Assembly: GCF_046119375.1 (NCBI RefSeq)
Contig: NW_027362772.1
Location: forward strand, 303,242,001-303,306,000
DNA: 64,000 nucleotides
Origin: Phyllobates terribilis
Lineage: Eukaryota
Direction: 5' to 3'
How positions within the stretch are numbered: position 1 is the first letter of the stretch; every line of letters starts with the position of its first letter. The position numbers were made by a program, and so were the translations under genes. Below are positions 3,109 through 57,196 of this stretch, one piece after another. A model generated the notes under the pieces. That model worked only from the letters and a program-made list of their open reading frames with translations, made no database searches and had not been told where the DNA came from.

Positions 3109-7349
<4,241 letters not shown>

Positions 7350-8779: not shown

Positions 8780-9179
8780 ATCACGCTGCAGAACATACCG
8801 GAAACCCCCCACAAGATCCGCCGTGTACCGGGAACACGGCACAGGACGCGCCGTGCACCGGGAACACAGCACAGGACGCGCCGTGCACCGGGAACACAGC
8901 ACAGGACGCGCCGTGCACCGGGAACACAGCACAGGACGCGCCGTGCACCGGGAACACAGCACAGGACGCGCCGTGCACCGGGAACACAGCACAGGACGCG
9001 CCGTGTACCGGGAACACAGCACAGGACGCGCCGTGTACCGGGAACACAGCACAGGACGCGCCGTGTACAGGGAACACAGCACAGGACGCGCCGTGTACAG
9101 GGAACACAGCACAGGACGCGCCGTGTACAGGGAACACAGCACAGGACGCGCCGTGTACCGGGAACACAGCACAGGACGC
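8780..9179 (+). repeat. 30-bp minisatellite (CCGTGTACCGGGAACACAGCACAGGACGCG), left part of an array split by element A
   Basis: About 13 copies; interrupted at 9179 and resumes at 14186. Confidence 0.95.
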
Positions 9180-9602
9180 TGTTATGATCTGCTACAGAAA
9201 CTAAGGAAAGGCAGGAGATCTGTCCCTACAATAGAACTAAACTAGATCCCTACGATGTAACGGGGAACCTGATCCTGCGATCAGACCCGCTAAAGTCCTC
9301 GGCTAGTCTGAACGCAGACCTATAGATGTGGGGGAGGGATCCCTACAAGATCTAGGGACTGGGATAAGTTGGACACCTCCTAGCAGAAATAGTAGCAGTC
9401 AAAGACAAACACACAACAAAAAGCATAGAGGTCAGAAGACCTAGCAAAACTAACAGAGAACGGCAATAGAGCAACAAGCTAGCTCAACAGTAGTAAATAC
9501 AAATGAAGTCCAGCAAAGCCAGGAGGGCGGAGCCGGATTAAATAGGCAAAAATGGTCATGTGACCAGCAAACTAAAAAAAAACTAACAGGAGAGTTGTAA
9601 CA
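9180..9602 (-). repeat. 3' LTR of element A
   Basis: Direct repeat of 13763-14185; the PPT is at ~9603-9620. Confidence 0.96.
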
Positions 9603-9614
9603 GTACCCCCTCTT

Positions 9615-12600
9615 CTAAGAGGATCCTCCGGATCCCCTAGGCCCAGGCTTACCAGGAAACCTGTGAAACGCTCGGACAAGTCTGGGGGCAGAAACATCAT
9701 CCGCCCTCACCCATGAGTTATCCTCAGGTCCGAAACCCTTCCAAGCGACGAGATACTGCAAACTCCCTCTATACCGTCTAGAATTTAGGATGCGGGAAAT
9801 TTCATATTCCCCGTCCTTCACCACCGGAGGAACAGTGGCAGAGGCGTCACCATCCGACACATCAGCTTTTTTCAACAGAGAAACATGAAACACCGGATTA
9901 ATCCTCCAGGACGTAGGAACCTCCAGCCTAACAGCAGATTGGTTAACTATCTGAAGTACCTTAAAGGGCCCTACGAACTTGGGACCCAATTTTTTAGAAG
10001 GAATCCTCATTCGCAGATTCCTAGAGGACAACCAAACCATGTCACCAACAGCAAACAAAACCTCTTGCCGTTTCCTATCAAAGTACCTCTTAGATTTTTT
10101 GTTAGCCTCCTGAAGATTACCACGCACATCCGTCCAAACTCTCTCCAAATCACCGGAAAAACTCTCCTCCTCAGGCACAGCCGAAACCAATTTGGAAAAT
10201 GACCCAAAAGACGGATGTCTCCCAGAACAACAAAAAAAAGGCGAACACCCAGCAGAAGAGGATGTATGGTTGTTAAGAGCAAATTCAGCAAGTGGCAGAA
10301 ACTCAGACCACCCCTCTTGATTGTCTGCCACAAAACAACGCAAGAACTGCTCAACATCCTGGTTCTTCCTTTCTGTCTGGCCATTAGACTCAGGATGATA
10401 TCCGGATGAAAACGACAAATGAACTCCCAACCTGTCACAAAAGGCACGCCAAAAACGAGCCACGAACTGAGGTCCCCTATCAGAAACAATGTCAGTAGGA
10501 ACACCATGTAGTCTAACAATTTCCTTGACAAAGGCCTTGGCGAGTGTCTTAGCGCAAGGCAGTTTGATGAAGGGAACCAAGTGACACATCTTGCTAAAAC
10601 GGTCCACGACCACCCAGATGACCGTGAAACCTTCAGAGGGAGGAAGGTCAGTAATAAAGTCCATAGCCAGATGTGTCCAAGGTGCACTAGGAACCTCCAG
10701 AGGGCAAAGCAACCCCGCAGCAGGAACATGCGAAGACTTGGATCTAGCACACACAGTACATTGGCGCACCCACTTAATGACTTCCTTCTGCCATCCAGGC
10801 CACCAAAAACTGCGACCCACAAGTCTCTTGGTCTCAGAAATTCCTGGATGACCTGCCAACCGAGACTCATGACACTCAACAAACAAATCTCTCCTAAAGG
10901 TCCTAGGCACAAACAACCTCCCATGGGGAGTGTTAGATGGGGCATTCTCCTGTGCTTTAAGAATCTCATCCTCCAAAACGGAGTCCAAAGCAGCAATCAC
11001 AACACCTTCTTGTAAAATGGTCTCCTCTTCCTCCTCAACACCGACCATGGGAGAAAAGCTGCGAGACAAAGCATCCGCTTTAACATTCTTGGTACCCGGG
11101 ATGTAAGTAACGGAAAAATTAAACCGCGAGAAAAAAAGTGCCCACCTAGCCTGACGGGCATTCAAGCGCTTGGCAGCATCAAGATAGATCAGATTTTTAT
11201 GATCAGTGAAAACCTGAACGGGAAATTCAGCACCTTCCAAGAGGTGACGCCAGTGTTCAAATGCGAGTTTAATCGCCAGCAATTCCCGATTACCAATATC
11301 GTAATTAAGTTCAGTCTCGGAAAATTTTTTTGAAAAAAAGGCACAGGGATGTACTCCATCCTTGTTTTCCTGAGACAACACCGCACCAACCCCCACCGAA
11401 GAAGCATCAACCTCAACCAAAAACGGCTTAGTCACATCAGGCTGCATAAGGATGGGAGCAGAGCTGAACCTCTCCTTGAGATACACAAAAGCTTCAATGG
11501 CCTCAGAAGTCCACTGAACCGCATTAGCACCTTTCCTGGTGAGATCGGTCAGCGGTTTGACAATAATAGAAAAAATTTTTATGAATTTTCTGTAATAATT
11601 GGCGAAACCCAAAAACCTCTGTATCGATTTCAAACCAATAGGCCTAGGCCATTCCTGCACAGCCTGAACCTTAACCGGATCCATCTCAAAACCTTCACTG
11701 GAGATAATGTAGCCCAAAAAACTAATTCTCTGTACAGCGAACTCACATTTCTCCAGCTTAGCAAAAAGCGAATTGTCCATTAATAACTGTAATACCTCAC
11801 GTACGCTCCGCCAATGAGACTCCAGATCCGGCGAATAAATCAAAATGTCATCCAAATACACAACCACATTTTTGCCGATTAAAGGTCTAAGGATGTCATT
11901 AATAAGATTCTGAAAAAATGCTGGAGCATTGGTAAGACCAAAAGGCATAACCAGATTCTCAAAATGACCCACAGGAGTGTTAAAAGCAGTCTTCCATTCA
12001 TCACCCTCCTTCATGCGCAACAGATTGTATGCCCCCCGGAGATCAATTTTAGAGAACCACTTGGCCCCCACTAACTGGTTAAACAAATCGGGAATCAATG
12101 GCAGTGGGTAAGGATTGCGTACAGTAATTTTATTAATCTCACGAAAGTCCAGACAAGGGCGTAAACCGCCATCTTTTTTTTTCACAAAAAAAAAACCAAC
12201 CGCCACAGGAGACTTGGAAGGCCTAATATGACCAGCGGCCAAGCTCGTCTGTATGTATTCCTCCAAAGCCTTTCTCTCAGGAATAGTAAGATTAAATAAA
12301 CGACTCTTAGGAAGAGTCGCTCCAGGGACAAATTCAGTGGTACAATCATAGTCTCTATGGGGAGGCAAAACCTGCGACTCCTCCTCAGAAAAAACTCTCC
12401 AAAAATCCTGAATAGGTACAGGCAATTCCCCTCTATCCACAGCAGCAATGCGCCCGTTACAACACTTGTCATAACACTTAGGGCTCCAGGATTTAATTTC
12501 ATTGGTAGACCAATCCAGCACAGGATTGTGCAATTTTAACCAGGGTAACCCCAATATTACTGGAGAAGGCAAATTATCCAATACCACCAAATCCAAATTC

Positions 12601-13682
12601 TCTTGATGAATACCATTAATAGTGAGGGGAAATTCACAGACCTTGTGAGTAACACTCTTCAAGGGAGAGCCATCGACAGAAACCACAGCAATAGGGGATG
12701 ACAAAGTTTTAGGTTCTAATCTAAGTTTTTCCAAGAATCCCCCATCAATCACATTCAGAGTAGATCCACAATCCACAAATACCCGAAATTCAATTAATTC
12801 ATCCTGAGCAGCAGTAGTGGCAGATAGGAATACCCCCTTAGAATTTAAACAGGCAATACGGGCATGACTGACCATTTTTTTTTCTTTCTTCTTACGAAGT
12901 ACACAGCTCTTAATAAAATGACCAGAACTTCCGCAATAGAAGCACAAGCCTTCAGAAAGTCGGCGGTCTTTTTCTTGAGAGCGGGGTGCCATCGCCCCAA
13001 TTTCCATCGGCTCTCCACTGTCAGCACAGAACCTCTCAGGACTCGAAGCTGACATAGCAGAGGATTTGCTCTCATTAACCCTTGCACGCAGTCTCCTGTC
13101 CACCCGTATAGCTAATTGCATTGCCTCCTGCAAGTTTCCAGGTGTGGGATAAGCAATCAGTAAATCCTTAACCCTTTCACCTAGCCCTGCCAGAAACAAG
13201 CTTTTCAAAGCAGAATCGTTCCACCCTACCTGGGCAGACCACCGACGGAAGTGAGAACAATATTTTTCCACATTACCTGATCCCTGCCTCAAACGTCTTA
13301 ATTCAGACTCAGCAGATGAGACACGATCAGGATCATCGTACAACAAACCCAAAGCAGAAAAAAAACTATCCACTGAACTAAAGCACGGATCACTAGGATG
13401 GAGAGAGAAGGCCCATCCCTGAGGATCTTTGCGCAAAAGTGACATTATGAACCCTATGCGCTGTGATTCATCACCAGAGGATCCGGGTCTCAAACGAAAA
13501 TATAATAGACAAGCATTTTTAAAAGAAAAAAAATCTTGTTGTTCGCCAAAAAATAGATCAGGCAGACGTACCTTAGGTTCCACAAAATGCGCTCCAGAAC
13601 AGCTACTCATGTGTTGTTGGAGCTTGGTCACCTCCAGAGAGAGTCCCTGCAAGTGTTGAGCCAAATCTTGCACCGAGATCAT
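9615..13682 (-). CDS. Gag-Pol polyprotein, 1355 aa (Gag with CCHC knuckle, aspartic protease, RT, RNase H, integrase, chromodomain)
   Basis: CFYCGSSGHFIKSC; VFVDCGS; YLDD; DASSVGVGAVL; H..H..CTVC; [13 protein letters not shown]; EYEISRIL...YLVAWKGFGPEDNSW. No stops or frameshifts. Confidence 0.97.
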   Translation of the reverse strand: MISVQDLAQHLQGLSLEVTKLQQHMSSCSGAHFVEPKVRLPDLFFGEQQDFFSFKNACLLYFRLRPGSSGDESQRIGFIMSLLRKDPQGWAFSLHPSDPCFSSVDSFFSALGLLYDDPDRVSSAESELRRLRQGSGNVEKYCSHFRRWSAQVGWNDSALKSLFLAGLGERVKDLLIAYPTPGNLQEAMQLAIRVDRRLRARVNESKSSAMSASSPERFCADSGEPMEIGAMAPRSQEKDRRLSEGLCFYCGSSGHFIKSCVLRKKKEKKMVSHARIACLNSKGVFLSATTAAQDELIEFRVFVDCGSTLNVIDGGFLEKLRLEPKTLSSPIAVVSVDGSPLKSVTHKVCEFPLTINGIHQENLDLVVLDNLPSPVILGLPWLKLHNPVLDWSTNEIKSWSPKCYDKCCNGRIAAVDRGELPVPIQDFWRVFSEEESQVLPPHRDYDCTTEFVPGATLPKSRLFNLTIPERKALEEYIQTSLAAGHIRPSKSPVAVGFFFVKKKDGGLRPCLDFREINKITVRNPYPLPLIPDLFNQLVGAKWFSKIDLRGAYNLLRMKEGDEWKTAFNTPVGHFENLVMPFGLTNAPAFFQNLINDILRPLIGKNVVVYLDDILIYSPDLESHWRSVREVLQLLMDNSLFAKLEKCEFAVQRISFLGYIISSEGFEMDPVKVQAVQEWPRPIGLKSIQRFLGFANYYRKFIKIFSIIVKPLTDLTRKGANAVQWTSEAIEAFVYLKERFSSAPILMQPDVTKPFLVEVDASSVGVGAVLSQENKDGVHPCAFFSKKFSETELNYDIGNRELLAIKLAFEHWRHLLEGAEFPVQVFTDHKNLIYLDAAKRLNARQARWALFFSRFNFSVTYIPGTKNVKADALSRSFSPMVGVEEEEETILQEGVVIAALDSVLEDEILKAQENAPSNTPHGRLFVPRTFRRDLFVECHESRLAGHPGISETKRLVGRSFWWPGWQKEVIKWVRQCTVCARSKSSHVPAAGLLCPLEVPSAPWTHLAMDFITDLPPSEGFTVIWVVVDRFSKMCHLVPFIKLPCAKTLAKAFVKEIVRLHGVPTDIVSDRGPQFVARFWRAFCDRLGVHLSFSSGYHPESNGQTERKNQDVEQFLRCFVADNQEGWSEFLPLAEFALNNHTSSSAGCSPFFCCSGRHPSFGSFSKLVSAVPEEESFSGDLERVWTDVRGNLQEANKKSKRYFDRKRQEVLFAVGDMVWLSSRNLRMRIPSKKLGPKFVGPFKVLQIVNQSAVRLEVPTSWRINPVFHVSLLKKADVSDGDASATVPPVVKDGEYEISRILNSRRYRGSLQYLVAWKGFGPEDNSWVRADDVSAPRLVRAFHRFPGKPGPRGSGGSS

Positions 13683-13762
13683 GATGGAAAACTGGAGGTC
13701 TTTCCCCAGAGAAAATCCTTTCCCTTTTTTTTTTTTTTTTTTTTTTTTATGGCTGGACTTAC

Positions 13763-14185
13763 TGTTATGATCTGCTACAGAAACTAAGGAAAGGCAGAAG
13801 ATCTGTCCCTACAATATAACTAAACTAGATCCCTACGATGTAACGGGGAACCTGATCCTGCGATCAGACCCGCTAAAGTCCTCGGCTAGTCTGAACGCAG
13901 ACCTATAGATGTGGGGGAGGGATCCCTACAAGATCTAGGGACTGGGATAAGTTGGACACCTCCTAGCAGAAATAGCAGCAGTCAAAGACAAACACACAAC
14001 AAAAAGCATAGAGGTCAGAAGACCTAGCAAAACTAACAGAGAACGGCAATAGAGCAACAAGCTAGCTCAACAGTAGTAAATACAAATGAAGTCCAGCAAA
14101 GCCAGGAGGGCGGAGCTGGATTAAATAGGCAAAAATGGTCATGTGACCAGCAAACTAAAAAAAACCTAACAGGAGAGTTGTAACA
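13763..14185 (-). repeat. 5' LTR of element A (TATTTAA on - at 14127-14121)
   Basis: Direct repeat of 9180-9602, upstream of gag. Confidence 0.96.
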
Positions 14186-14672
14186 GACGCGCCGTGTACC
14201 GGGAACACAGCACAGGACGCGCCGTGTACCGGGAACACAGCACAGGACGCTCCGTGTACCGGGACCACAGCACAGGACGCGCCGTGTACCGGGACCACAG
14301 CACAGGACGCGCCGTGTACCGGGACCACAGCACAGGACGCGCCGTGTACCGGGACCACAGCACAGGACGCGCCGTGTACCGGGAACACAGCACAGGACGC
14401 GCCGTGTACCGGGAACACAGCACAGGACGCGCCGTGTACCGGGAACACAGCACAGGACGCGCCGTGTACCGGGAACACAGCACAGGACGCGCCGTGTACC
14501 GGGAACACAGCACAGGACGCGCCGTGTACCGGGAACACAGCACAGGACGCGCCGTGTACCGGGAACACCCCACAGGATCCGCAGTGTACCGGGAACACCC
14601 CACAAGACCCTCCGTATACAGGGAAAACCCCACACGACCCTCCGTATACAGGGAAAACCCCACAGGATCCGC
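14186..14672 (+). repeat. 30-bp minisatellite, right part of the split array
   Basis: About 16 copies; the outer units revert to a CACCCCACAGGATCCG-type variant. Confidence 0.95.
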
Positions 14673-16035: not shown

Positions 16036-19000
16036 TGTTATGGGTCCGAGTGGTGGTACTTCTATGCTTTGGTGCAAGGAGGGACCAGAGGTGCATGACT
16101 AAGTACCTACTCGGCCTGACCAAGGTCGCACGGCGGCTCAATCGACTCCGTGAACCAGGTAGGCACCGAGCAGAGGGACCAGGTGTCACTCTGGGACCGA
16201 CCTTGTGTGAGAGCAGGTGACTCCCACAGGTCAGATGGCAGGAACTGACCAGTACAGCAGATGAGCATGGCTGGAAGGCTGACGGGTGGTCTGGGTAGAC
16301 AACCTAGCGGGCACGACAAGTAACAGGCAGGTGCTCTGGGTAGGCAGACTGGCGGGCACAACAGGTAACAGGCAGGTGCTTCCAGGTAAGCAGGCTGGTG
16401 AGCACGGCAGGTAACTGGCAGACAGACTGGCGAGCAGGACTGACTGGCTGACTGGCGGGCAGGACTGACTGGCAGACTGGCGGGCAGGACTGACTGGCAG
16501 ACTGGCGGGCAGGACTGACAGGCAGCGGGACCTGAGGGTTGAAGCAAGTGTTAGCACATGGAACAACAACCATTGCACAGGAACCTCCATATTGGAGGAG
16601 GTGCTTTAAATAGGGGAAGTCCTCTGGCCATTGGCCGGGGACTTATTAGGACGGCGCGCGCGGCCCCTTTAAGAGGGAGGGAAGCGCGCGTGCCCTAAGC
16701 ACAGTGCCCGGGAAGCTGTGCGCGGTGCGCACCACAGTAGCTGCAGGACAGGAGCCGGAAGACGCCGGACCAGGGCCGTGGCGGTGAGGGGAACGGCGTC
16801 TCTGCCTCTGCTTCCTGCTACAGTCACCCCCCCCTTTATGCCCCCCCTTCTTTAAGCCCGAGAGAAATTTTTTAAGAAGATGAGGGACATGAATGTTCTC
16901 CCTGGGTTCCCAAGACCTCTCCTCCAGGCCCTTCCAATCCACAAGAAAGTAAATCTTTCCTCTTACCCTCTTGGTGGCCAAAATGTTTTCTACCTCAAAG
17001 ACGTCCTCAGCGGAGACTGGAGCTGGAGGGGTACCTGGATCGTCAGAGAAGGAATTAAGGACAACAGGTTTGAGAAGGAATACATGAAAGGAGTTGGGAA
17101 TCCGTAAGGTGACCGGGAGTTTCAGCTTGTAAGCCACGGGATTGATTTGTTTCAGAACCTCGAACGGACCGATGAACCGCGGATCCAACTTATAGGAAGG
17201 TATCTTGAGACGGACATGTTTGGAGGAAAGCCAGACTTTGTCTCCCGGACGTAATTGAGGAGGATCCAGACGTCTCTTATCAGCATGTCTCTTCATCCGC
17301 TCGGAGGACTGAAGAAGTGCAGATCTAGTGTCTTCCCAAATTGCCGAAAATTCGCTGACAAGAGACTCCGCGGCAGGATTGTCCACAGAAGAGGAGATGG
17401 GAAACGGAATCCGGGGGGTGTTGACCGTAGACCACAAAGAACGGCAATTTAGTAGAAGACTCGCTCTCACGGTTGTTATAGGAGAACTCAGCCCAGGGCA
17501 GGAGCTCAACCCAATCGTTATGACGAGCATTGACGAAGTGCCGGAGAAAACTGTTAAGGGCCTGGTTGATGCGTTCCACTTGACCATTGGATTGAGGGTG
17601 ATAAGCAGAGGAAAAATCCAAGGAGATGTCCAGCAGCTTGAACGTAACTCTCCAGAAGCGCAGAGTGAACTGAACCCCGCGATCAGACACATTGTGGAGG
17701 GGTAGGCCGTGAAGACTGAAGATGTGATGGATGAAGTCCTTGGCCAGCACAGATGCAGACGGAAGACCAGTCAGAGGGATTTAGTGGGCCATTTTAGAGA
17801 AGCGGTCAGCGACCACCCAAATGACTGTAAAACTGGCAGAGACAGGGAGATCCGTAATGAAATCCATAGCTATGTGTTGCCACGAAGCGGAAGGCACGGG
17901 AAGAGGGAGGCGATGGCCAGATGGAAGGTGCCGGGGAACCTTGTTACGGGTACAGGAGGAACAAGCTGCGACGAAGTCCGCAACATCCTTGCGCAGGGAA
18001 GACCACCAGTAATGTCGGGTGATGAGCAGAAAGGTCTTCCTCTGACCAGCATGGCCGGCTAGTTTGGATGAATGGCCCCAGAGTAGAACCTTCTTACGAT
18101 CTGGAACCGCCACAAAAGACTTACTTGGTGGAAGAAGAGACAGGTCAAACGGAGCCACAGTCATTACTTTGGAGTGGTCGATGATATGTAGAGGCTCCTC
18201 CTCTTGGTCAGTGGACAGGAACGAGTGGCATAAAGCGTCAGCTTTAATGTTCTTGTCCGCCGGGCGGTAATGCAGAGTGAAGCAGAATCGGGCAAAGAAT
18301 AGAGACCACCTGGCCTGACGCGGATTAAGTCTTTGGGCGTTTTGTAAATAAGTCAGGTTTTTGAGGTCAGTGTAGATGACCACCGGGTGCAGAGCCCCCT
18401 CCCATAGGTAACGCCACTCCTCCAGCGCCAATTTGATGGCTAGCAGTTCACGATCTCCTATGGAGTAGTTGCGCTCGGACGAGGCGAAGAGCTTGGAGAA
18501 GAAGCCGCAGGTTACCATTCTCCTGGACGGGGATTTCTGGGTGAGCACCACTCCGGCTCCCGAGGAGGATGCATCAACCTCCAGGAAGAACTGCTTGTTG
18601 CAATCCGGACGGTGCAGCACTGGGGCGGAGGAGAAGGCTTGTTTTAGGGAGACGAAGGCCTCCTCCGCTTCGGAAGTCCATTCCCTGGGATTTGCTCCCT
18701 TACGGGTGAGCGCGGAGATGGGAGCGGTCCGGGAGGAGAAATGAGGGATAAAGAGGCGGTAATAATTTGTGAAGCCCAGAAATCGCTGAATCGCCTTCAA
18801 CCCCTCCGGTCGGGGCCACTTTAAGACGGCATAAACCTTCTCGAGATCCATCCGCAGACCAGTCTCGGAGATAATATAGCCCAGGAACGGAAGGGAAGTC
18901 TGCTCGAAAAGGCATTTCTCAAATTTTGCGTATAGGCGATTCTGCCAGAGCTTTAGCAGAACTTGATGAACATCCCTCCGGTGTGTTGGCAGAACCAGAA

Positions 19001-21749
19001 ACAAAACCAAGATATCGTCCAGGTACACCACCACACAAGAATACAGGAGATCACGGAAGATGTCGTTAACCAGCTATTGGAAAACGGCTGGAGCATTACA
19101 GAGACCAAAGGGCATTACGCGGTATTCGTAGTGACCGTCCCGGGTGTTGAATGCCGTCTTCCACTCGTCTCCCTGGCGGATCCAGACCAAATTGTACGCC
19201 CCACGAAGATCGAGCTTGGTGAAGATCTTCACGCCTTTAAGGTGGTCGAACAGCTCCGAGATGAGAGGCTGGGGATACTTATTCTTGATGGTAATCTGGT
19301 TAAGACCCCTGTAATCAATACAGGGACATAGTGAGCCGTCTTTCTTCTTAACAAAGAAGAATCCTGCTCCAGCCGGGGAGGTAGATTTCTGGATGAATCC
19401 CCTAGCAAGATTCTCTTCTATGTACTCAGACATGGCCCGGGTCTCAGCCGGCGACAAGGGGTAGATACGCCCGCAGGGAGGAGAGGAACCAGGTAGCAGG
19501 TCGATTGGGCAATCATACGGCTTATGAGGTGGAAGTGTCTCTGCCTCCTTTTTGTCGAAGACGTCCGCATAGGTCCAGTAGGGTGCCGGCAGACCAGGTA
19601 GATTAGCCGGAGTAGACAGGGGTCGAGCTGGACGAACCGGAACCAGACAGGACTCGTGGCATTCCTGCCCCCAACGGAGCACTTCACCTGACCTCCAATT
19701 CAGGACAGGTTCATGTCTCTGTAACCAGGGTAGACGAAGCAAGAGGGAGTGAGAGACCGGACAGCACATGAAAGGAGATCTTCTACGAGTGCAGCATTCC
19801 CACCTGAAGGGTTACAGACTCTGTGACGAGCAAGATGGTCTCCGGAAGAAGTCTCCCATCAACGGAAGCGACCTCCAACAGTTCAGCCAGACGTATGGTA
19901 GGAATCTGATACCGCTCCACAAGAGCCTGAGAAATGAGATTCCCAGCGGCTCCAGAATCCAGGGGGGCAGTCTCAAAGAAACGGGTCTCACCACTGAAAA
20001 TGGAAACAGAGTCAAGGACGGAGAGGATTTACTCTTGCCTAGGACGACCTCTCCGAGCGGTCCTAGACACTGGAGTTTCCTGGCTTCACCGGACAGGAAC
20101 GGATCTGATGCTCTTTACTGCCACAATAGAAGCAACTCCCCTCGGCTCGACGCGTCTCCTGGCGAGATTTGACCATCTTGGTTTGGTCAATTTGCATAGG
20201 TTCAGGCGAGCATGCCCGGAGAATTGCTGGTTGGGAGGCAGGCTTTTGGAATACAGGAGCGAGACCCGGAAGTCTTCTCTCCCGGTTAGTCTCCTTAGCT
20301 CGTTCCAAAAAACGGATGTTAATCCGGGTAGCTAATGACTCCAGGTCGTCCAGGGTGGAAGGGCTGTCACGACCTGCTAGCTCATCCTTGATCTGTCCGG
20401 AAAGGCCCTCCCAGAAGGTGGACACCAGGGCCTCGTTGTTCCAGGCAAGCTCTGATGCGAGGGTACGGAAATGTATGGCATATTGGCCCACGGTTAGACT
20501 CCCTTGGCGGAGACGGAGAAGTGAAGAGGCAGTAGAAGTTTTTCATCCGGGCTCATCGAAGACCTTTTGGAAGGCAGTGAGGAAAGCCGGAAGATCGGAC
20601 ACCAGGGGATCCCCTCTTTCCCACAGAGGGTTTAGCTATGCCAATGCCTCCCCGGTGAGGTGAGACATGATGAACGCCACCTTGGCCCGGTCAGAGGTGA
20701 ACTGGTATGCCAGGAGTTCAAAGTACAGCGTGCACTGATTTAGGAAGCCTCGACATAAGACTGTGTCACCACCAAAACGGGGAGGTGCAGAGAGCCGGGG
20801 TCCAGAGCCGGGTGCCATAGCGCCAGTAGGTTGAGGTGCAGCCGGAGCGGGTGCCGCTCGGCTAGAGACGGACACAGACGGGGTGGACAGCGTGTCCAGG
20901 CGAGAGTTGACTGACCGCAGATAGGACAGGATAGTCTCCTGTTGGGATCTCTGACATGAGACCTCCTGGTAGAGGTCAGAGAGTGAAGGAGCCTGGGGGC
21001 CACCGGGTTCCATGGCCTGTGCAAACTGTTACGGGTGGAACCTCTGTGCTTCGGTGCAAGGAGGGACCAGAGGGGCGTGACTAAGTACCTACTCGGCCTG
21101 ACCAAGGTCACACGGCGGCTCAATCGACTCCGTGAACAAGGTAGGGACCGAGCAGGTGAACTAGGTGCCACTCTGGGACCGACCTTGTGTGAGAGCAGGT
21201 GACTCCCACGGGTCAGATGGCAGGAACTGACCAGTACAGCGGATGAGCACGGCTGGAAGGCTGACGGGTGGTCCGGGTAGACAGGCAGGCGGGCACAACA
21301 GGTAACAGGCAGGGGCTTCCAGGTAAACAGGCTGGCGGGCACAACAGGTAACAGGCAGGTGCTTCCAGGTAGGCAGGCTGGTGAGCATGGCAGGTAACTG
21401 GCAGGCTGACTGGCAAGCAGGACTGACAGGCGGGCAGGACTGACAGGCAGACTGGCGGGCAGGACTGACAGGCAGCGGGACCTAAGGGCTGAAGCAAGTG
21501 TTAGCACACGGAACAACAACCATTGCACAGGCACCTCCATATTGGAGGAGGTGCTTTAAATAGGGGAAGTCCTCCGGCCATTTGCCGGGGACTTTTTAGG
21601 ACGGCGCCCTAAGCACAGTGCCCGGGAAGCTGCGCACGGTGCGCGCCACAGTAGCTGCAGGACGGGAGCTGGAAGACGCCGGACCAGGGCCATGGCGGTG
21701 AGGGGAACGGCGTCTCTGCCCGGCAGAAGGCAGAGACGCCAATGCTACA
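16036..21749 (-). mobile_element. Decayed Ty3/gypsy chromovirus, element B
   Basis: LTRs at 16036-16822 (3') and 21027-21749 (5'); TSD TGTCA/TGTCG (one CpG-type change); PPT at ~16823-16850; internal gag-pol broken by stops and frameshifts. Confidence 0.93.
16646..21013 (-). pseudogene. Disrupted gag-pol of element B
   Basis: Fragments: gag MEPGGPQ (20636-21013) and CFYCGSKEHQIRSC (20063-20491); LDSGAAG protease; RT (19074-19769, 17781-19034, YLDD); integrase (17325-17750); chromodomain VFEVENIL...LVDWKG. Confidence 0.92.
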
Positions 21750-25121: not shown

Positions 25122-26004
25122 CCAGTAGGAATAACAGAGGAACGGCACAATAAGAAAACATGTTATTTCATAAGGAATATGTCTGCAGAGCTGAGGGGAG
25201 CTCTTTAAGGAATTGCTGTATAAGCACGTCTCCAATGTATGGCGCCCGCTGTCTAAATGCCGGAGGACGGGTGATCTGTAGTGCGGTGCTGCCGGCGCTG
25301 TAATATTCCCTTCTTCATCTCCTTGTGAGGTGAGAGCCATTGTTATAGGGCCGTGTGGAATATCCTGCGCAGAATGTGACATACGCCAGGAAGAAACCCT
25401 CTGCTCATCCACATCTAAATTATCCATCACAAGGAGCGCGGCCGCCTCATCGCCGGCTGTAATTAGTCACAGAACCGCTGCCTATTCTTGTCACCGCGGC
25501 ACTGCCGGATTTAAATTGCTGTTCCCAAGTGGCGTCTTCCAGCAAATGTTCATAGAAATCAAAGTGACCTTCTTAAGATCAGACTGACAGCCGCGAGGGC
25601 GACCGGCGCATATTCCTATCTCAACAGCATCAAATAAAAGCTACAAAGGCGAGAAGCCTCCATTACAGCGTGTTCTGTGCAAAAATGAAAAACAGGCCGA
25701 CGGCGCCAAGGTGAAATGTGAGCCCTCTGACATGTCCTACGTGCCCCCGCAAGAGCTAATTATATACGAGAATAATACGATAATGAATTAAAGGCAACAC
25801 AACGAGACATAAAAGACATAATGGAGCGGATCTACAGAACATCAGCTTCATCTACGGCACAGAGAAAGACAAAACCCCAAACTGGAAGCCACGGGCCGTG
25901 ATGGGGGCACACACTGCAATACTGGCGGCAGACGCGTTTTCAACACATGAGCCTGCGACATTTTTTTTTCAGGTTTACGGTAAATTTACATTTTGGATAA
26001 ACAG

Positions 26005-26430
26005 CGGGTCTTGTGGGGTGTTCCCGATATTCATCAGGTTTAATGAGGTGTTCCTGCTTATACGGTGTTCCCAGTATACAGCAGGTCTTGTGGGGTGTTC
26101 CCGGTATACGGAGGGTCTTGTGGGATTTTCCCGGTATACGGCAGGTCTAGTGGGGTGTTCCCAGTATACGGCGGGTCTTGTAGGGTGTTCCCGGTATACG
26201 GCGGATCTTGTGGAGTGTTCCCAGTATACAGCAGGTCTTGTGGGGTTATCCCGGTATACGGCAGTTCTAGTGGGGTGTTCCCGGTATACGGCAGGTCTTG
26301 TAGGGTGTTCCTGGTATACGGCAGGTCTTGTGGGGTGTTCCCGGTATACGGCGGGTCTTGTGGGGTGTTCCCAGTATACGGCGAGTTTTGTGTGGTGTTC
26401 CCGGTATAAGGTAGATCTTGTGGGGTGTCA
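26005..26430 (-). repeat. 30-bp minisatellite of the same family as the 8.8/14.2-kb array, opposite orientation
   Basis: Unit CCCGGTATACGGCAGGTCTTGTGGGGTGTT; its reverse complement matches the outer units of the 8.8/14.2-kb array. Confidence 0.9.
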
Positions 26431-27336
26431 TAGATAATACCAGAGAGATCACACAGATACCAATGCGGTCACCAGTTTGTCACGGGACGCAACTCCGCTG
26501 CCTCCAGTCATCAAGACAATTACGCAATTGACTGACGAGTGTTGGACAAGGCCGCGGCTGCTTCCACTACTAGTCCGGTTATTGGGGAACTCACAGTGAG
26601 CATATGGTATATACACCTCCGATTCCAATGCATGGAATATATGTATATAACCCGGTACAGTCAACTCCACAATAAAAAAAAAAGGAGCTACTAGCTGCCA
26701 CCATCAATTGTTTATGCAGGCCGATTGGACACCCGTTACAGGTAGCAAAATGCTTCAGGGGTGCGGTTTACAGAGCAAGAGGAATGGAGTTATTAAATTT
26801 TATATATTTAATCTGGAAAGGTAGGCAGTGTTTATAAAAAAATATACAAACATGATAAAAAATGGGAACAAAACAACACGGTATATACAATTACATACAG
26901 TAAAATGGAATAACGAAAGAGAAGTACTAAACCTGATGTTGCAGGAATGGCTCTTATTTTTATGGAGGGAAGTGCTTCAATAAAGAAAATTAGACAGTCT
27001 CACAGAGAACTTTGTTTCCCAGAATAAACAATGACAGAAACCCAAATTCTGTTTTTTATTAGATCAAGGTAAGCCCACATACCTCCCCTTGGTGAACTCA
27101 TATGGGGGATGGTTCTGGGATGTGTTAGGTCTTTTAGAAGTTTATGAGATCCCCAACTTTCATGATATCTTCGCCCCTAGAGGTCCCAGGTGGGAGATAT
27201 TGTCATGTTTCCTATCACGATTTTATCTTTCTATTAAGATGAAACATGGCATGGATAGCATCATCCATCGTACCCGATATTAAGCTGGAGGTGTTAGCAT
27301 GGCCTTACAGTGATGTGAGTGAAAGCGTTATGTTAG

Positions 27337-27965: not shown

Positions 27966-28364
27966 GTTAGCCTCTTTGCTATAACGCCAAAAATATTTCT
28001 TCCAGAAATATCGGATCGATGCAAACCCCAATATTTCATCACTGAGTATTGGCTCCAAAGTGTCTCAGACAAGACCTTTGAACAGAGGAAGCTCTTGCCT
28101 TGAAAGTATACTTCTCCACCTCTGAGTAAACGAATCCTTGGCTTAGTGTCTGGTTCTCAGAGCAGTTCTTTTGTTGTAATTACCTGGTCACTGAAGGATG
28201 TCTTTACTTCAATTGAGGTTAAAGTGTCAGCTATCTCTTACTTCCCCAATTATAATTAGTTCCTCACTTTCCCAGTTATAATTAATCTCATACCTTCAAA
28301 TGTGAGGGTGATATGTCCTCTCTCTGGAAATGTCTTTATGGATTTTTTTATTTTTCTCTATGAC

Positions 28365-29340
28365 ATGGGGTGTTCCCGGTATACGGCAGGTCTTGTGGGG
28401 TGTTCCTGGTATACGGTAGGTCTTATGCGGTGTTCCCGGAATACAGCAGGTCTTGTGGGGTTTTCCTGATATACGGCGGGTCTTGTGGGGTGTTCCTGAT
28501 ATACGACGGGTCTTGTGGGAGGTTCCTGATATACGGCGGGTCTTGTGGGGTGTTCCCGGTATATGGCAGGTCCAGTTTTTGGCGGGTCTTGGGGCGTGTT
28601 TCTGGTATACGGTGGGTCTTGTGGGGTGTTCTTGGTATTCGGCGAGTCTTGTGGGGTATTCTTGGTATACTGCAGGCCTAGTGGGGTATTCTTGGTATAC
28701 GGTGGGTCTTCTGGGGTATTATTGGTATATGGTGGGTCTTGTGGGGTATTCGGCGGATCTTGTGGTATATTCTTGGTATACGGCAGGCCTAGTGGGGTAC
28801 TCTTGATATATGATGGGTCTTGTGGGGTATTCTTGGTATACGGTGGGTCTTGTTGGGTATTCTTGGTATACGGCAGGCCTAGTGGGATACTCTTGATATA
28901 TGATGGGTCTTGTGGGGTATTCTTGGTATACGTTTGGTTTTGTGGGGTATTCTTGCTATACAGTGGGTCTTGTGGGGTATTCTTGGTATACGGTGGGTCT
29001 TGTGGGGTAATCTTGGTATACGGTGGGTCTTGTGGGGTAATCTTGGTATACGGTGGGTCTTGTGGGGTATTCTTGGTATACGGTGGGTCTTCTTGGTATA
29101 CGGCGGGTCTTGTCGGGTATTCTTAGTATACGGCGGTTCTTGTGGGGTATTCTTGGTATACGGCGGGTCTTGTCGGGTATTCTTAGTATACGGCGGGTCT
29201 TGTCGGGTATTCTTGGTATACGGCGGGTCTTGTCGGGTATTCTTGGTATACGGCGGGTCTTGTGGGGTGTTCCCAGTATATGGGAGGGGTGTTTCTGGTA
29301 TACAGCAGGTTTTATGAGGTGTTCTTGGTATACAGTAGTT
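28365..29340 (-). repeat. 30-bp minisatellite (same family), T-rich derived variant
   Basis: About 32 units drifting from TTCCCGGTATACGGCAGGTCTTGTGGGGTG to TTCTTGGTATACGGTGGGTCTTGTGGGGTA. Confidence 0.92.
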
Positions 29341-46862: not shown

Positions 46863-49579
46863 TTGATGTCTTTACAAGGTGTCCTGGCCAGTAAGGGGTA
46901 TGTGCACATGAGGCGCATATGGAGAGCAATTAAACAACTTTATCCACATGATGCATAATAAATCTGCAGAATAAATTTACATCCTGTGGATTTGAAGAAA
47001 TTTGCAGAACAATTACTGCTGTGGATTTCAAATGCAAAATCTGCAGCATTTCTACCATAAAGTCCTTGTTCTGTGAACATAGCCTTGCAAAAGGGTTCTC
47101 CATCCCCACTCACTTCCACAGCCAGAGGTAAGAGATGTCACATCAAAGACAGGTCGTAGTCCAAGGAATACGGTGGCAGCACGGTCCTGGACGGTATGTT
47201 CGTCCCTGATCCAAACATGAGACCCCCCTTCTATGCTGCAGGATTGGCCCTAAATTCATTTCTAACGGTATAGGAGCCGTTGGCTGATGGACCCCACACT
47301 TAGGATGTTTGCCGAGTGTTTATTTCTGCCCTCCTGCAGGTATCTGGGCTGTATCCCCTGCGACCTTTATTACTTTCTCCTCTGACAGTCCTGTATTTGT
47401 ATCAGTTACGGGAGCCCCTTATTTTATATAATGGCCATGAAGAAGAAATCCTGCGTACAAATGTCTGACTGTGCAGGCTTGCCGGACCATGATGGCGCTA
47501 CTGTTCACAATGGGATCAGATGATGATGATTTCCATTCTGAAGCTTTTTCTTATAACTGGATTTTTGTTTACAGGGTCCCTGATGCCAAGATGTGCTGTG
47601 CAAACTGCTGGGTGAGGGGGTCACCTCTGCTGGGTGAGGGGGTCACCAGTGAGCTACACCCCCCAGTTATTTCTAACTGTAAGGGACCATGATGCTTTAT
47701 AAAACATGGAAACACCCAATTGGGGTCCCAATCAAGTAGAATGGCAGGTATTGCAGCCATAATACTGACCCTACAGGTATACTGCCATATAGCATCGGCC
47801 TCTGCTGGAGCCCTATGGGACTGTGCTGCACATTCAGTAGAGCCACCCTCTATATAATGTGGGGGTCTCTGCTCACAGACCCTTTCTTACATGTGTGATC
47901 TGCACATATGTGACCTATCCATAAATATGAGAAACTACTACTACTGTTGTGTTTACAGCAATATCTTTTTCTCTTTCTGTTAAGAACTTTTTTTTGCCTC
48001 CTAAAGACAATGCATATGACGGCAGCTGGATCCGTGTGCGTCAGAAACTAGAGCCGCTCCTCGAAACCTGGGGCACACTATGTCAGCAGTGCAGGGTCCA
48101 CACATTTGTAAGCTGTTAAAGAAGCAAAACGTGGGATCGTCCATTACTACCATGCAGAACGGAGCAGAAAGAGCTGCAGGACCCTGGTACAGTGGCCATT
48201 GTTGGTAATCCATAGCCAGAGGACCAAAGGCCTGTGAACCTCCGTCCACCTTCCAGCATCCTCATGCCTGTTCTGATGAGTAGGGCCGGTGTGACGTCAA
48301 GCGTGCGTTGAGGCCGTCCTCATCAGTAGAGGTGTAGGTAGGAGGAGGGGTGCAGAATTGGCCTCTGGATAAGGATCCTGCACCCCTTTTTTTGCTCAAT
48401 TCTACTTCCAGGCAATCATTGGGCTACTAGGTGAGCTCCTCCCCCTGGACTCCTTGTTTCTTGGCTCCACCCCCCTGACTACAGTAAAATTGAAAATTCT
48501 CATTCCAAGAAGTGGGGGGGAATGAGCTCACAAAGAGGATTCAATACAAAGAGGATTCAAGCTCTTTGACTGGTTTTTGCTTGGCTGCGAAGGCTTGCTG
48601 TTTCTCCTTACAGGCTAGGCTTAGATGTAGGCTCACAGAGAGACAGGGTTCCCTTAAGAATGGCGGCGGCGCCTAGATGTGCAATCTGCAGCATTTGACA
48701 GCACAAAATGTGCATTTAATTTTTAAAACCCCATCTGCATGATGAAAGAAATCAGTGCAGAAAAGTGAATGTGGCGCAGATTTTCGGTTTTCAGGCCGCA
48801 GACTCTTTATTCTGTTGTCTTTTGGACCCAGCCTCATTTTAGAATAAAATGCATGTAACATCCTAATCTGAAGACGTCCCCTTAAAGCGCCTCGTACCTC
48901 AGTGATGTCACAAGCCCTAAATGAATCGTCTTCACAGCTAGTGCTTCTGTCGGATCATCTCCTTTGTGGTCCGGCCGGTCATTGATCCCCCGCTCTGATG
49001 GAGAGTTCACGTCTCCTCTCTGCTCTGATGTCTCTTATTATTAGCGCTGATCCTCCGTCTCTTCTCCAACCTGATGTTTGCACATTAAGAAACAGCACGT
49101 ACTGTCTACCGATCAATGTAAATCTCAACAAGACAACATGAATCTTGCTTTTAATCTTCCCGTGTGCACTGGTCTTATTTACTGCAAGTGATCCTGTATG
49201 CGGAGTACTATGGGTGTGAATACAGAGAAAACCAGGTGTTACATGGTAAATCAGTAAATCACAAGAGCTTACACTCTACAAGGAAAACCAAATGGGTGTG
49301 CATCTACATCATACACTGCTCAAAAAAATAAAGGGAACACTTAAACAACATAATGTAACTCCAAGTCAATAACACTTCTGTGAAATCTACCTGTCCAGTT
49401 AGGAAGCAACACTGATTGACAATCAATTTCTCTGGCTGTTGTGCAAATGGAACAGACAACTGTTAGAAATGAGGGCAATTAGGAAGACACCCCCTATAAA
49501 GGAGGCGGCGTCTACAGTACAACCCACAGAAGTTGCTCAGGTAGTGCAGCTCATCCAGGACGGCACATCAATGTGAGCA

Positions 49580-50510
49580 GTGGCAAGAAGGTTTGCTGTG
49601 TCTGTCAGCGTAGTGTTCAGAGGCTGGATGCGCTACCAGGAGACAGGCCAGTATACCAAGAGACGTGGAGGGGGCCGTAGGAGGGCAACAACCCAGCACC
49701 AGAACCGCTACCTCCGCCTTTGTGCAAGGAGGAGCACTGCCAGAGCCCTGCAAAATGACCTCCAGCAGGCCACAAATGTGCATTTATCGGCACAAACCGT
49801 TAAAAACCGACTTCATGAGGGTGGTATGAGGGCTCGACGTCCACAGATGGGGGTTGTGCTCACAGCCCAACACCGTGCAGGATGCTTGGCATTTGCCACA
49901 GAACAGGATTGGCAAAGTCGCCACTGGCTCTTCACAGATGAAAGCAGGTTCACACTGAGCACATGTGACAGACGTGACAGAGTCTGGAGACGCAGTGGAG
50001 AGCGATCTGCTGCCTGCAACATCCTTCAGCATGACCGGTTTGGCAGTGGGTCAGTAATGGTGTGGGGAGGCATTTCTTTGGAGGGCCGCACAGCCCTCCA
50101 TGTGCTTGCCAGAGGTAGCCTGACTGCCATTAGGTACCGAGATGAGATCCTCAGACCCCTTGTGAGACCATATGCTGGTGCGGTTGGCCCTGGGTTCCTC
50201 CTAATGCAGGACAATGCCAGACCTCATGTGGCTGGAGTGTGTCAGCAGTTCCTGCAGGATGAAGGCATTGAAGCTATGGACTGGCCGCCCGTTCCCCAGA
50301 CCTGAATCCGATTGAGCACATCTGGGACATCATGTCTCGCTCCATCCACCAACGTCACGTTGCACCACAGACTGTCCAGGAGTTGGCAGATGCTTTAGTC
50401 CAGGTCTGGGCGGAGATCCCACAGGAGACCATCCGCAACCTCAGCAGGAGCATGCCCAGGTGTTGTAGGGAGGTCATACAGGCACGTGGAGGCCACACAC
50501 AATACTCAGC
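49580..50510 (+). pseudogene. Tc1 transposase with frameshifts and deletions
   Basis: [16 protein letters not shown] and MQDNARPH motifs; a 1-bp deletion precedes [12 protein letters not shown]; D2-E spacing is 34 when repaired. Confidence 0.88.
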
Positions 50511-52767: not shown

Positions 52768-53828
52768 TGTAGCATCGGCGTCTCTGCCCCGTACTAGGCA
52801 GAGACGCCGTCCCTCTCACCTCCCCGCTCCTGGCGCGGCGTCCCCCAGCGCTTCTCTCCCCGCTGCTTCCGGCACGTGCTCCTTCCCCGGCAGTGTGCTT
52901 AGGGCGCGCGCGCGTGCTCCCCCTCTCTTAAAGGGACCGCGCGCGCCGTCCTAAGGAGTCCCTGGGCCAATTGCCGGAGGACCTCCCATATTTAAGGCAC
53001 CTCCTCCAAAATGGAGGTGCCCGAGCAATGTTGTTGCAAAGCCTTCACTCTGCTTCAGCCCTCAGGTCCCTTTACCAGTTACCTGCCAGTCACCTGCCAG
53101 ATTCCTGCTTGTTACCTGCCAGTCACCTGCCAGATTCCTGCTTGTTACCTGCCAGTTACCTGCCTGATTCCTGCTTGATAACTGCCTGATATCCGTTTAC
53201 CTGCTTGCAAGCCTGCGGTCCGACGGTCTGCTTTCCTACACCTGTCAGTCTGTCTATGGACCAGCCTGCTCGCTCACCTGGGAGCGCTCATCTGCTACCT
53301 GTCTGCTAGCCTACCTGGAGGCTCTGCCGTCACTTGCCGTGACCACCTGCCTGTCCAGAGACTCTTGCCTGCTCACCTGGGAGCGCTCACCTGCTACCTG
53401 TCTGCTAGCCTTCCTGGAGGCTCTGCCGTCACTTGCCGTGACCACCTGCCCGTCCAGAGACTCTCGCCCGCTCACCTGGGAGCGCTCACCTGCTACCTGC
53501 CTGCTAGCCTACCTGGAGGCTCTGCCGTCACTTGCCGTGACCACCTGCCCGTCCAGAGACTCTCGCCCGCTCACCTGGGAGCGCTCACCAGCCACCTGCC
53601 TGCTGTCCTTCTACCCAGAGACTGTCCCTGTCACTTGCCGTGAGTACCTGTCCTTTTACCCAGAGACTGTCCCTGTCACTTGCCGTGACTACCTGCCCCT
53701 CTACCCAGAGACTGTCCCTGTCACTTGCCGTGACTACCTGCCCGTCTTCCCTGGGAGCCACCCGCTTCCTTACATGGACTGCCCCCTTGTATAGTTGCAC
53801 AGAGGTTCCACCTCCCAGACCCGTTACA
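52768..53828 (+). repeat. 5' LTR of element C, 1061 bp (TATTTAA at 52989)
   Basis: Direct repeat of 62169-63081, with internal 99-bp and 45-bp tandem units. Confidence 0.95.
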
Positions 53829-53841
53829 GTTTGCTCTGGCC

Positions 53842-54767
53842 ATGGAACCCGGTGGCCCCCAGATCTCCGATCTGCACCAGGAAGTCTTGCGTCAGAAAAC
53901 TCAGCAGGAGGTGGTACTGTCCTATCTACGGTCCGTTAACTCTCGTCTAGGCGCATTGTGTGACTTGTCTATGTCTACCTCTGGTCCAGCCATGCCCATT
54001 CCTGCGGTACCGCAATCCAGTCCCTTCATGGTACCCGACTATGGACCTCGGCTTCTGGCACCTCCACGCTTTGCCAGCGAACCTACTTTAGCTCGGGGTT
54101 TCATAAACCAGTGCACCCTGCACTTTGAGCTATTGGCATACCAGTTCATCTCCGACCGAGCCAAGGTGGCCTTCATCATGTCCCATCTTACTGGGGAGGC
54201 ACTGGCATGGCTAAATCCCCTGTGGGAGAGAGGGGATCCCCTGGTGTCCGACCTGCCGTCTTTCCTCGCTGCTTTCCGGAAAGTCTTCGATGAACCTGGA
54301 CGGAAAACCTCTTCTGCCTCCTCACTGCTACGTCTCCGCCAAGGGAGTCTCACCGTGGGCCAATATGCCATACGGTTCCGCACCCTCGCTTCTGAGCTTG
54401 CCTGGGAAAATGAGGCTCTGGTGTCCGTCTTCTGGGAGGGTCTTTCCGGTCGAATTAAGGACGAGTTAGCTGGTCGGGACATTCCTACCACTCTGGATGA
54501 CCTGGTGTCACTAGCTACCAGGATTGGCATTCGGTTCCAAGAACGTGCCAAAGAGACTACCTGGGAGACTTTTCTTGCTCTGCTCCTACTTCCCTGAGAC
54601 CTGCCTCTCAATCAGTCACTCCGCGGGCGCCCTCGCCTGAACCTATGCAGATCGACCAGACCAAGATGGTCAAATCTCGCCGAGCCGAGGGAAGCTGTTT
54701 CTATTGTGGCAGTATGGAGCACTTCATCCGTTCCTGCCCGGAGAAGCCGGGAAACGCCAGTGTCTAG
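53842..54767 (+). pseudogene. gag of element C, frameshifted near 54570-54600
   Basis: MEPGGPQ...; after the shift, EPMQIDQ...CFYCGSMEHFIRSCPEKPGNASV*. Confidence 0.88.
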
Positions 54768-57196
54768 GACCGCTCGGAGAGGTCGTCCTAGACAAAAGTA
54801 AGCCCTCTCCGTCTCTGACTTTACCGGTCTCTATTGCTTGGGGAGAAAACCGTCACTTTGAACTTGCCCACCTGGATTCTGGAGCTGCTGGAAACCTCAT
54901 CTCCCAGTCTCTGGTAGACAGATACCGTATTCCCACCAAGTCCCTGGCTGAACCATTATCAGTCGCCTCCGTGGATGGAAGACTTCTCTCGGAGACCATC
55001 CTGCTCGTCACTGAACCCATAACCCTGCAGGTGGGAATGCTGCACTCTGAGGAAATCTCATTCCATGTGTTGTCCGGACTTTCTCACTCCCTGTTGCTAG
55101 GTCTACCTTGGCTCCAGACACACGAACCCATATTGAACTGGCGATCCGGTGAAGTACTCCGATGGGGTCCAGACTGCCATAGGACCTGCCTGGTTCCGGT
55201 CCGCCCAGTTCGCCCTCCGCCTACTCCAGCTAATTTACCAGGTCTCCCGGCTTCTTACTGGCCCTATGCGGACGTCTTCGGTAAGAAGGAAGCAGAGACG
55301 TTGCCACCCCATAGGCCATATGACTGCCCGATCGACCTGGTACCTGGCGCCACTCCTCCCCGTGGGCGTATCTACCCGTTGTCTGCAGCCGAGACCCGGG
55401 CCAGGTCTGAGTACATTGAAGAGAATCTGGCTAGGGGATTTATCCGGAAATCTACCTCCCCGGCTGGAGCCGGATTCTTCTTTGTCAAAAAGAAAGACGG
55501 CTCGCTACGCCCCTGTATTGACTATAGAGGACTCAATCAGATCACGGTTAAAAATAAATACCCCCTTCCGCTCATCTCTGAGTTATTTGATCGTCTTAAA
55601 GGCGCCAGGATCTTCTCCAAGCTGGATCTACGTGGAGCTTATAACCTGGTCCGTATCCGTCAGGGAGACGAGTGGAAAACAGCATTTAATACCCGGGACG
55701 GACACTATGAGTACCGTGTGATGCCCTTCGGTCTCTGCAATGCTCCCGCCGTCTTCCAAGAACTGGTCAACGACATCTTCCGTGACCTTCTTTACTCCTG
55801 CGTGGTGGTATACCTGGACGACATCTTGGTCTTCTCTCCGGATCTTCCCACACACCGGAGGGATGTTCGTCAGGTCCTGCTTAGGCTCAGGCAGAACCAC
55901 CTCTATGCTAAATACGAGAAGTGCCTTTTTGAGCAGACCTCTCTTCCTTTCTTGGGCTATGTTATCTCCCAGACAGGCTTGCGAATGGATCCCGAGAAGC
56001 TCTCTGCTGTCCTAAAGTGGCCCCGTCCGGAGGGCTTGAAGGCGATACAGCGATTCCTGGGCTTCGCTAATTACTATCGTCTCTTCATTCCTCACTTCTC
56101 GTCACGGACTGTGCCCATATCTGCGCTCACCCGTAAGGGAGCAAATCCCAAGGTATGGTCATCCGAAGCTGAGGAGGCCTTCCTTTCCCTGAAACAAGCC
56201 TTCTCCTCTGCCCCTGTGCTGCACCGTCCGGACTGCAACAAACAGTTCTACCTGGAGGTTGATGCTTCCTCCTCTGGAGCCGGAGCGGTGCTCACCCAGA
56301 AGTCTTCCTCCGGGAGAATGGTAACCTGCGGCTTTTTCTCTAAAATCTTCTCCTCCTCTGAGCGCAATTACTCCATAGGAGACCGAGAACTGCTTGCCGT
56401 TAAATTGGCGCTGGAGGAGTGGCGTTACCTGCTTGAAGGGGCTCTATACCCGGTGATCATCTATACGGATCACAAGAACCTGGCATATCTCCAAAATGCC
56501 CAGAGACTTAATCCACGTCAAGCCCGGTGGTCTTTGTTCTTTGCCCGCTTCGATTTCATCCTTCATTTCCGCCCGGCGGACAAAAATGTCAAAGCTGATG
56601 CCTTGTCCCGATCCTTCCTGTCCTCCGACCAAGAGGAGGAGCTTATGCACATTATCGACCCCTCCAAGGTGATGAATGTGGCCCCCTTGGATTTGACTCG
56701 TCTTCCACCCGGCAAGACGTTCGTGGCACCTCCAGACCGTGAGAGGGTTCTTCGCTGGGGTCATTCTTCTAAACTAGCTGGCCATGCCGGCCAAAAGAAG
56801 ACCTTCCTACTCATTTCCCGGCATTACTGGTGGTCTACCCTGCGTAAGGATGTGGTAGACTTCGTCTCTGCCTGTTCATCTTGTGGCCGCAACAAAATTC
56901 CCAGACACCAGCTGGTCATCTCCTGCCGCTTCCCATACCTGTTGCCCCGTGGCAACACATCGCTATGGACTTCATTACCGATCTTCCTGTCTCTGCCGGG
57001 TGTACTGTCATTTGTTTGGTCGCAGACCGCTTCTCTAAAATGGCCCACTTCATTCCCCTGCCTGGTCTTCCGTCTGCACCTGAGCTGGCTAAGGACTTTA
57101 TTCGCCATATCTTCCGTCTCCATGGCCTACCCCTCCACATCGTGTCGGATCGAGGGGTTCAGTTTACCTCACGCTTCTGGAGAGCCACATGTAAAC
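54749..57196 (+). pseudogene. pol of element C (protease, RT, RNase H, integrase N-half), in the -1 frame relative to gag; frameshift near 56910; cut by CR1
   Basis: LDSGAAGNL, YLDD, DASSSGAGAVL, HSSKLAGH...CSSC; after the shift, MDFITDLP and SDRGVQF. Confidence 0.92.

Follow-up and report, generated by a model that had tools for sequence, protein, structure and literature searches.

A young chromovirus of Phyllobates terribilis likely primes reverse transcription from its own RNA

Three chromoviruses in the window

The window, by which we mean the whole stretch of 64,000 nucleotides of Phyllobates terribilis DNA analysed here (contig NW_027362772.1, positions 303,242,001 to 303,306,000), contains three chromoviruses, designated elements A, B and C. 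Element A lies on the minus strand and is organized as follows, with all coordinates being those of the window.

9175..9179, minus strand: TSD GCGTC, downstream copy
9180..9602, minus strand: 3' LTR, carrying a second copy of the 9-mer GCTGGACTT at 9514-9506
9603..9616, minus strand: polypurine tract AGAAGAGGGGGT plus a 2-nt spacer, AC
9615..13682, minus strand: single gag-pol ORF from the first ATG (13682), in a frame open from 13808
13725..13748, minus strand: A24 run in the leader, variable among copies
13752..13760, minus strand: primer-binding site (PBS) AAGTCCAGC, without TGG, a 9-nt complement of GCTGGACTT
13761..13762, minus strand: 2-nt spacer GT between LTR and PBS, mirroring the AC ahead of the 3' LTR
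13763..14185, minus strand: 5' LTR, 423 nt, TGTTA...TAACA
14082..14084, minus strand: TGT immediately 3' of the primer, predicted partner of the LTR-terminal ACA in a second short helix
14089..14097, minus strand: predicted self-primer GCTGGACTT, predicted transcript nucleotides 1-9, with T at -1 and G at +1
14121..14127, minus strand: TATA-like box TATTTAA, its first base 30 nt ahead of the predicted start
14186..14190, minus strand: TSD GCGTC, upstream copy, inside a 30-bp tandem array

Element A belongs to the Ty3/gypsy chromoviruses and is young. It has the LTR pair with TG...CA ends, the TSD (5 bp, GCGTC) and the polypurine tract of a Ty3/gypsy LTR retrotransposon, and its frame 13808-9615, open over 1397 codons, encodes Gag, protease, RT, RNase H, integrase and a chromodomain in the order Gag-PR-RT-RH-IN, with no env and with the ORF ending at the polypurine tract. 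The chromodomain (PF00385, residues 1335-1383, E 2e-10) sits at the integrase C-terminus, and the best solved relative of the polyprotein is Ty3 Gag-Pol (E 2e-132). An earlier note, made from the letters of this DNA, had called the element young and intact. The 1397-codon frame is uninterrupted and the LTRs differ at just 5 of 423 sites (K2P 0.012); the LTR showed no canonical poly(A) signal. The closest proteins among the matches listed come from frogs, salamanders and fish. A FastTree phylogeny of 60 RT-RNase H segments places element A within a frog/fish/Xenopus clade (support 1.0) that adjoins a salamander protein and fungal proteins, in a tree built without named Tf1, sushi-ichi or Amn sequences. 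The family is abundant: in a genome of 10.6 billion bases there are 6,883 matches to the junction between the LTR end and the PBS of element A, and of the first 100 listed, 97 have the PBS of element A without change.

Elements B (16052-21720, minus strand) and C (52768-63081, plus strand) are older chromoviruses of an RT lineage other than that of element A. They show the geometry of element A in different letters.

21015..21024, minus strand: element B PBS TTGCACAGGC, after ACA-GT, 10/10 complementary to the predicted primer
21523..21532, minus strand: element B predicted self-primer GCCTGTGCAA, 30 nt behind TATTTAA (21562)
53019..53028, plus strand: element C predicted self-primer GCCCGAGCAA, 30 nt behind TATTTAA (52989)
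53831..53840, plus strand: element C PBS TTGCTCTGGC, after ACA-GT, 9/10 complementary to the predicted primer

Element C and its clade appear to use two frames. In both B and C the gag ATG (GCCATGG) directly follows the PBS, where element A has GCCATA and a run of A. Between the TATA-like box and the primer, B (21554-21531, minus strand) and C (52997-53020, plus strand) also carry an inverted repeat, GCACCTCC...GGAGGTGC, which includes the first two bases of the primer and could fold only in the 3' copy within the RNA or in DNA. A CR1-like LINE, with a GDSL esterase ORF, endonuclease and RT, lies inside element C (57351-60962, plus strand).

Other repeats share the window. A 30-bp tandem array surrounds element A (8819-9179 and 14186-14667), diverged arrays of the same 30-bp period lie in the opposite orientation near 25924-26523 and 28259-29335, and pieces of Tc1/mariner transposase occur at 5893-6876 (minus strand) and 49577-50305 (plus strand).

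A PBS complementary to the LTR of element A

On the minus strand the 5' LTR (14185-13763) is followed by GT (13762-13761) and then by AAGTCCAGC (13760-13752), and TGG is absent from the first 40 nt past the LTR. The sequence AAGTCCAGC is the exact 9-nt complement of GCTGGACTT, which begins at 14097, exactly 30 nt from the first base of TATTTAA at 14127, and which has no minus-strand copies in the window other than those of the two LTRs (14097 and 9514). Both observations from which the earlier note had argued for self-priming, namely the lack of a tRNA-type PBS behind GT and the presence of its complement 30 nt on from the TATA-like box, thus hold to the base. The U3/R border used here is itself a prediction from that box.

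How much weight can a match of nine bases bear? In dinucleotide-shuffled LTRs, a complement of at least 9 nt, at offsets 0-5 and anywhere in the LTR, arose in 60 of 5000 cases (1.2%), so that the match in element A taken alone is suggestive and not decisive. Because the single match is modest, the weight of the argument rests on comparison across the family and on the position behind the TATA-like box. The 9-mer is also conserved within the A clade: across 37 diverged A-clade LTRs, the 9-mer window is 98.8% conserved against a mean of 86%, and ranks 13th most conserved of 414 9-nt windows. Contigs of two further organisms span the stretch from TATA-like box to primer, not the PBS, with no other letters listed at 14089-14097, and were given no weight.

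The same register across the family

For the family comparison we assembled 101 loci, made up of elements A, B and C and 98 stretches around top profile and protein search hits. A polyprotein hit was present in 96 and absent from 5; of the 96, 56 were dropped for want of an LTR pair, an exact TSD or a polypurine tract, although many of these still show the self-complement pattern, an observation we treat as descriptive. The remaining 40 were delimited by LTR pair, TSD and polypurine tract under a rule that made no use of the PBS but was drawn up after the LTR-delimitation results had been seen. They comprise 33 chromoviruses, 6 TGG-type gypsy elements of another gypsy lineage that serve as controls (L163, L170, L171, L174, L175, L178) and one mis-delimited locus with wrong ends, counted apart (L217). 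The 33 chromoviruses are not independent, 8 being of the A clade and all coming from top profile hits; the independent units are instead the four RT lineages and the single-pair swaps described below.

The polyprotein of element A has no match in the 200 kb to the right of the window (L121-L140), though the window itself has three chromoviruses. The best 150 matches to PF03732 all fall on small unplaced contigs, and of the seven such contigs compared with the element A polyprotein (L249-L255) four gave no match and three a weak one; a second organism in the assembly is a possible source of these contigs.

An exact self-complement of 9-11 nt is present in 29 of the 33 chromoviruses, and the other four have one mismatch at the same site. 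The TGG-type controls reach at most 6 nt. In all 33 chromoviruses the match starts at LTR+3, behind a 2-nt spacer that mirrors the two bases between the polypurine tract and the 3' LTR (the spacers are exactly GT and AC in 15 of 33), the partner site opens with GC preceded by a pyrimidine, and at least one LTR has an AT-rich box, a loosely defined motif, at -28 to -37. Matches of at least 9 nt were found in 16 of 462 downstream control windows, in 0 of 33 same-strand comparisons and in 28 of 682 comparisons of a PBS with the LTRs of elements that have another PBS. The 28 cross-family matches fall at three sites, 24 of them at one site in one LTR type, and were taken as chance; at LTR position 174 in three loci (L147, L148, L150) there is a 10-nt complement of the spacer plus PBS of element A, again probably by chance.

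These figures bear directly on the simplest alternative, that a T-rich LTR will now and then complement its own PBS by accident. A match of 9 nt does arise in 1.2% of shuffled LTRs and in about 3.5-4% of control windows; yet the self-complement keeps one register in 33 of 33 chromoviruses while its letters change, and one base pair is found in three states (below). Family comparison, register and covariation together refute chance at the family level, and for element A we regard accident as extremely improbable.

PBS and R-start change together

Here we observe 12 types of PBS/R-start pair, 11 of them distributed over four RT lineages and the twelfth coming from copies with a variant PBS. Neighbouring types often stand one swapped pair apart, as in ATACTCTAGC, ATACTCAAGC and ATACTCAGGC, each of which occurs with its own complement. 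For a direct test within one lineage, copies were chosen solely by a non-T base at PBS position 4, taking the first 30 of 656 matches. The R start was located in 25 (and not in the other 5), and all 25 carry the matching R base, 23 as A:T and 2 as C:G, one of the latter with a neighbouring mismatch; sister copies with T at PBS position 4 carry A (T:A). Comparison of the letters thus shows joint change of PBS and R-start across families within a single genome.

The A family itself presents a different picture. Among 30 copies with a variant PBS position 4, none is compensated: 25 keep the canonical R-start, 3 have another change there and in 2 it was not located, a distribution that fits mutation of the PBS after insertion. 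The evidence from the A clade is accordingly one of conservation of the 9-mer, with no covariation, and that from the sister lineages one of compensated change; as far as comparison of copies can show it, the pairing of PBS and LTR and its conservation are shown. The self-priming reading of the earlier note gains strong support from this covariation in four lineages, elements B and C included, and stays an inference.

A further alternative takes the pairing as real and selected but assigns it another purpose, for instance to hold the leader closed for packaging, translation or strand transfer, and lets priming depend on something else: perhaps the 9-mer as it stands in the 3' LTR, another RNA molecule, or a protein. 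Covariation, after all, demonstrates pairing and not priming, and, with a second copy of the 9-mer in the 3' LTR, intermolecular or 3'-end pairing would look the same in the sequence. Against this, all 33 elements have the duplex stop precisely two bases away from the LTR end, which is where the minus strand has to be started; they offer no alternative primer site, and in Tf1 this layout has been proven to supply the primer. We consider a purely non-priming role very unlikely.

Predicted folding of the leader

In the predicted fold of element A the helix between primer and PBS has a mean pair probability of 0.95 and is present in both the minimum-energy and the centroid structures, while the overall stability of the 5' RNA is unremarkable (z -0.74). 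Over 17 representatives the primer helix has a probability of at least 0.6 in 11 and of 0.12 or less in 6. Of 15 representatives, 13 have a TGT no more than 8 nt past the primer, where the background is 8-18% per window, and its predicted pairing with the terminal ACA of the LTR would fit one of the flanking duplexes of the Tf1 'pretzel'. The predicted leader of element A consists of a central duplex and a weak upstream duplex; the downstream (third) duplex of the 'pretzel' is unsupported in element A, where the best candidate reaches -4.1 kcal/mol.

A proposed priming cycle and the tRNA alternative

We think it very probable that element A starts reverse transcription at its own 9-mer and without a tRNA, with start, cut and priming argued from the precedent of Tf1. 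Transcription would start at G14097, 30 nt behind TATTTAA, and nucleotides 1-9 of the RNA would pair with the PBS across a 328-nt loop, helped by the adjacent short UGU:ACA helix. By analogy with Tf1, the RNase H of the element, a domain that it encodes and to which cleavage is here assigned by prediction, would cut after nucleotide 9 (after 14089) and free a 3'-OH. Extension by RT from this end, first over the GT spacer and next through U5-R, would yield strong-stop DNA about 328 nt long that starts opposite 13761. In retroviral integration, integrase trims two bases from the DNA ends. The 2-nt spacers at both LTR borders of element A lead to a corresponding prediction: owing to the GT and AC spacers the linear DNA would be two bases longer at either end, and trimming by integrase would produce TG...CA.

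The main alternative is that element A is primed by the 5' half of a host tRNA cut in its anticodon loop, the LTR match being a relic or a back-up. The earlier note had named a better match of the PBS to a tRNA 3' end or fragment as grounds for rejecting its reading, and the outcome is divided. As to the 3' end its view stands, since without TGG the CCA end of a tRNA cannot pair with the PBS. As to fragments it does not stand unqualified: narrowly, and for element A only, an internal 9-mer of a tRNA-Ser(TGA) variant pairs as well or slightly better. The variant gene holds GCTGGACTT, ending at anticodon position 34 and matching the PBS at 9 of 9 positions, and the duplex is put at -15.2 kcal/mol, or -16.2 if a further G-U pair is counted, where the self 9-mer gives -14.9; Leu(TAA) and the common Ser(TGA) fit the same PBS with one G-U pair. 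The variant is present in at least 15 tandem copies among the first 100 of 252 listed matches, and the lineage of element A alone has a pair of 9 nt, the shortest, where the other lineages have 10. These copies form a block of at least 15 listed units, each the variant with a C-A mismatch and the 9-mer of element A, in a tRNA-Ser(TGA) tandem array with a period of about 2.3 kb (L236/L237; G000:C11, ~604.84-605.13 Mb).

Several observations weigh against such a primer. The search pattern was built to find a match of this kind in a genome with very many tRNA variants, and the variant that it found has its C-A mismatch at the top of the anticodon stem. A perfect internal tRNA match exists for 1 of 11 PBS types, that of element A, in a partial set of 191 genes and 12 anticodon classes, and the tRNA-Ser(TGA) variant cannot account for the other pair types; with 12 PBS types in all, we do not see one fixed host tRNA half across the lineage. 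A tRNA primer would not call for the conservation seen in the R-start 9-mer, which ranks with the best-preserved windows of A-clade LTRs, and in a plant survey half-tRNA priming turned up in copia lineages only (PMC6317226). The tRNA set is partial because, of 30 loci from an Rfam tRNA search, the 7 checked held Lys genes. On balance a half-tRNA primer for element A seems highly unlikely, and priming from its own 9-mer is retained as the preferred reading.

Comparison with known systems

The closest parallel is with Tf1 and Tf2 of Schizosaccharomyces pombe. In Tf1 the RNA pairs through its first 11 bases, and RNase H cuts between nucleotides 11 and 12 (PMC7175516). Element A resembles Tf1/Tf2 in having no tRNA site, a single ORF and a chromodomain, a PBS that complements the predicted 5' end of the RNA, and a duplex between the sequence 3' of the primer and the sequence 5' of the PBS (PMC7175516, PMC10085805). 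It differs in the length of the primer, which is 11 nt in Tf1/Tf2 against 9 in element A and 10 in the sister lineages. Moreover, the PBS of Tf1 appears to abut the LTR (PMC11042837), whereas a 2-nt spacer intervenes in 33 of 33 elements here, and the third 'pretzel' duplex is not evident in element A. Finally, the mechanism is experimental in Tf1 and read from sequence here.

Among vertebrate elements, element A shares with the sushi/Amn group the character of a chromodomain gypsy element, and its RT groups with fish and Xenopus proteins. Sushi-ichi uses two frames; element A differs in having one ORF. Elements of the Amn-san type are the commonest LTR elements of Silurana (Xenopus) tropicalis and the only ones there with a chromodomain (PMC4131045). 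The half-tRNA-primed copia elements Osser, Bryco and Bianca are alike in lacking TGG, and the site of element A can likewise match a tRNA up to the anticodon arm. They differ in that they use one fixed tRNA (PMC6317226), whereas here the site varies by family together with the LTR of the same element.

The proposal of self-priming in vertebrates was, as the earlier note had said, already in print. Butler et al. (2001), as cited in PMC10085805, proposed self-priming and the 'pretzel' for vertebrate Tf1/sushi elements; self-priming has been described as a trait common to the Tf1/sushi group (PMC10085805 and preprint), and self-primers are attributed to members of that group from yeast and vertebrates (PMC6317226) and, more broadly, 'from fungi to vertebrates' (PMC4600332). 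In the literature searched, with most subscription papers outside its scope, we found no experiment on self-priming in a vertebrate element.

Implications

The mechanism itself is therefore not new. What is added here is the comparative evidence, a set of base-exact predictions and the apparent differences from Tf1, namely a shorter primer, a 2-nt spacer and two duplexes. Compensated changes in four lineages turn the proposal of vertebrate self-priming into strong comparative evidence, and the predictions (transcription start at 14097, cut after 14089, DNA beginning opposite 13761) concern a family with thousands of young copies. If the reading is true, a very abundant LTR class of this genome copies itself without a host tRNA and thereby lies beyond control by tRNA fragments, to which elements primed by tRNA are vulnerable (PMC7472051).

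A broader interpretation can be offered, though tentatively. Primer and PBS of vertebrate chromoviruses may constitute a freely drifting, family-specific pair, in which every cycle copies the PBS afresh from the primer of the element itself and both sites change in step as a result. On this view the vertebrate form would depart from Tf1 by priming with 9-10 nt, by having 2-nt ends for integrase to trim, as in retroviruses, and by forming two duplexes, not three. Needing no tRNA, these elements could thereby escape silencing by tRNA 3' fragments, which might help to explain the mass expansion of chromoviruses in giant amphibian genomes.
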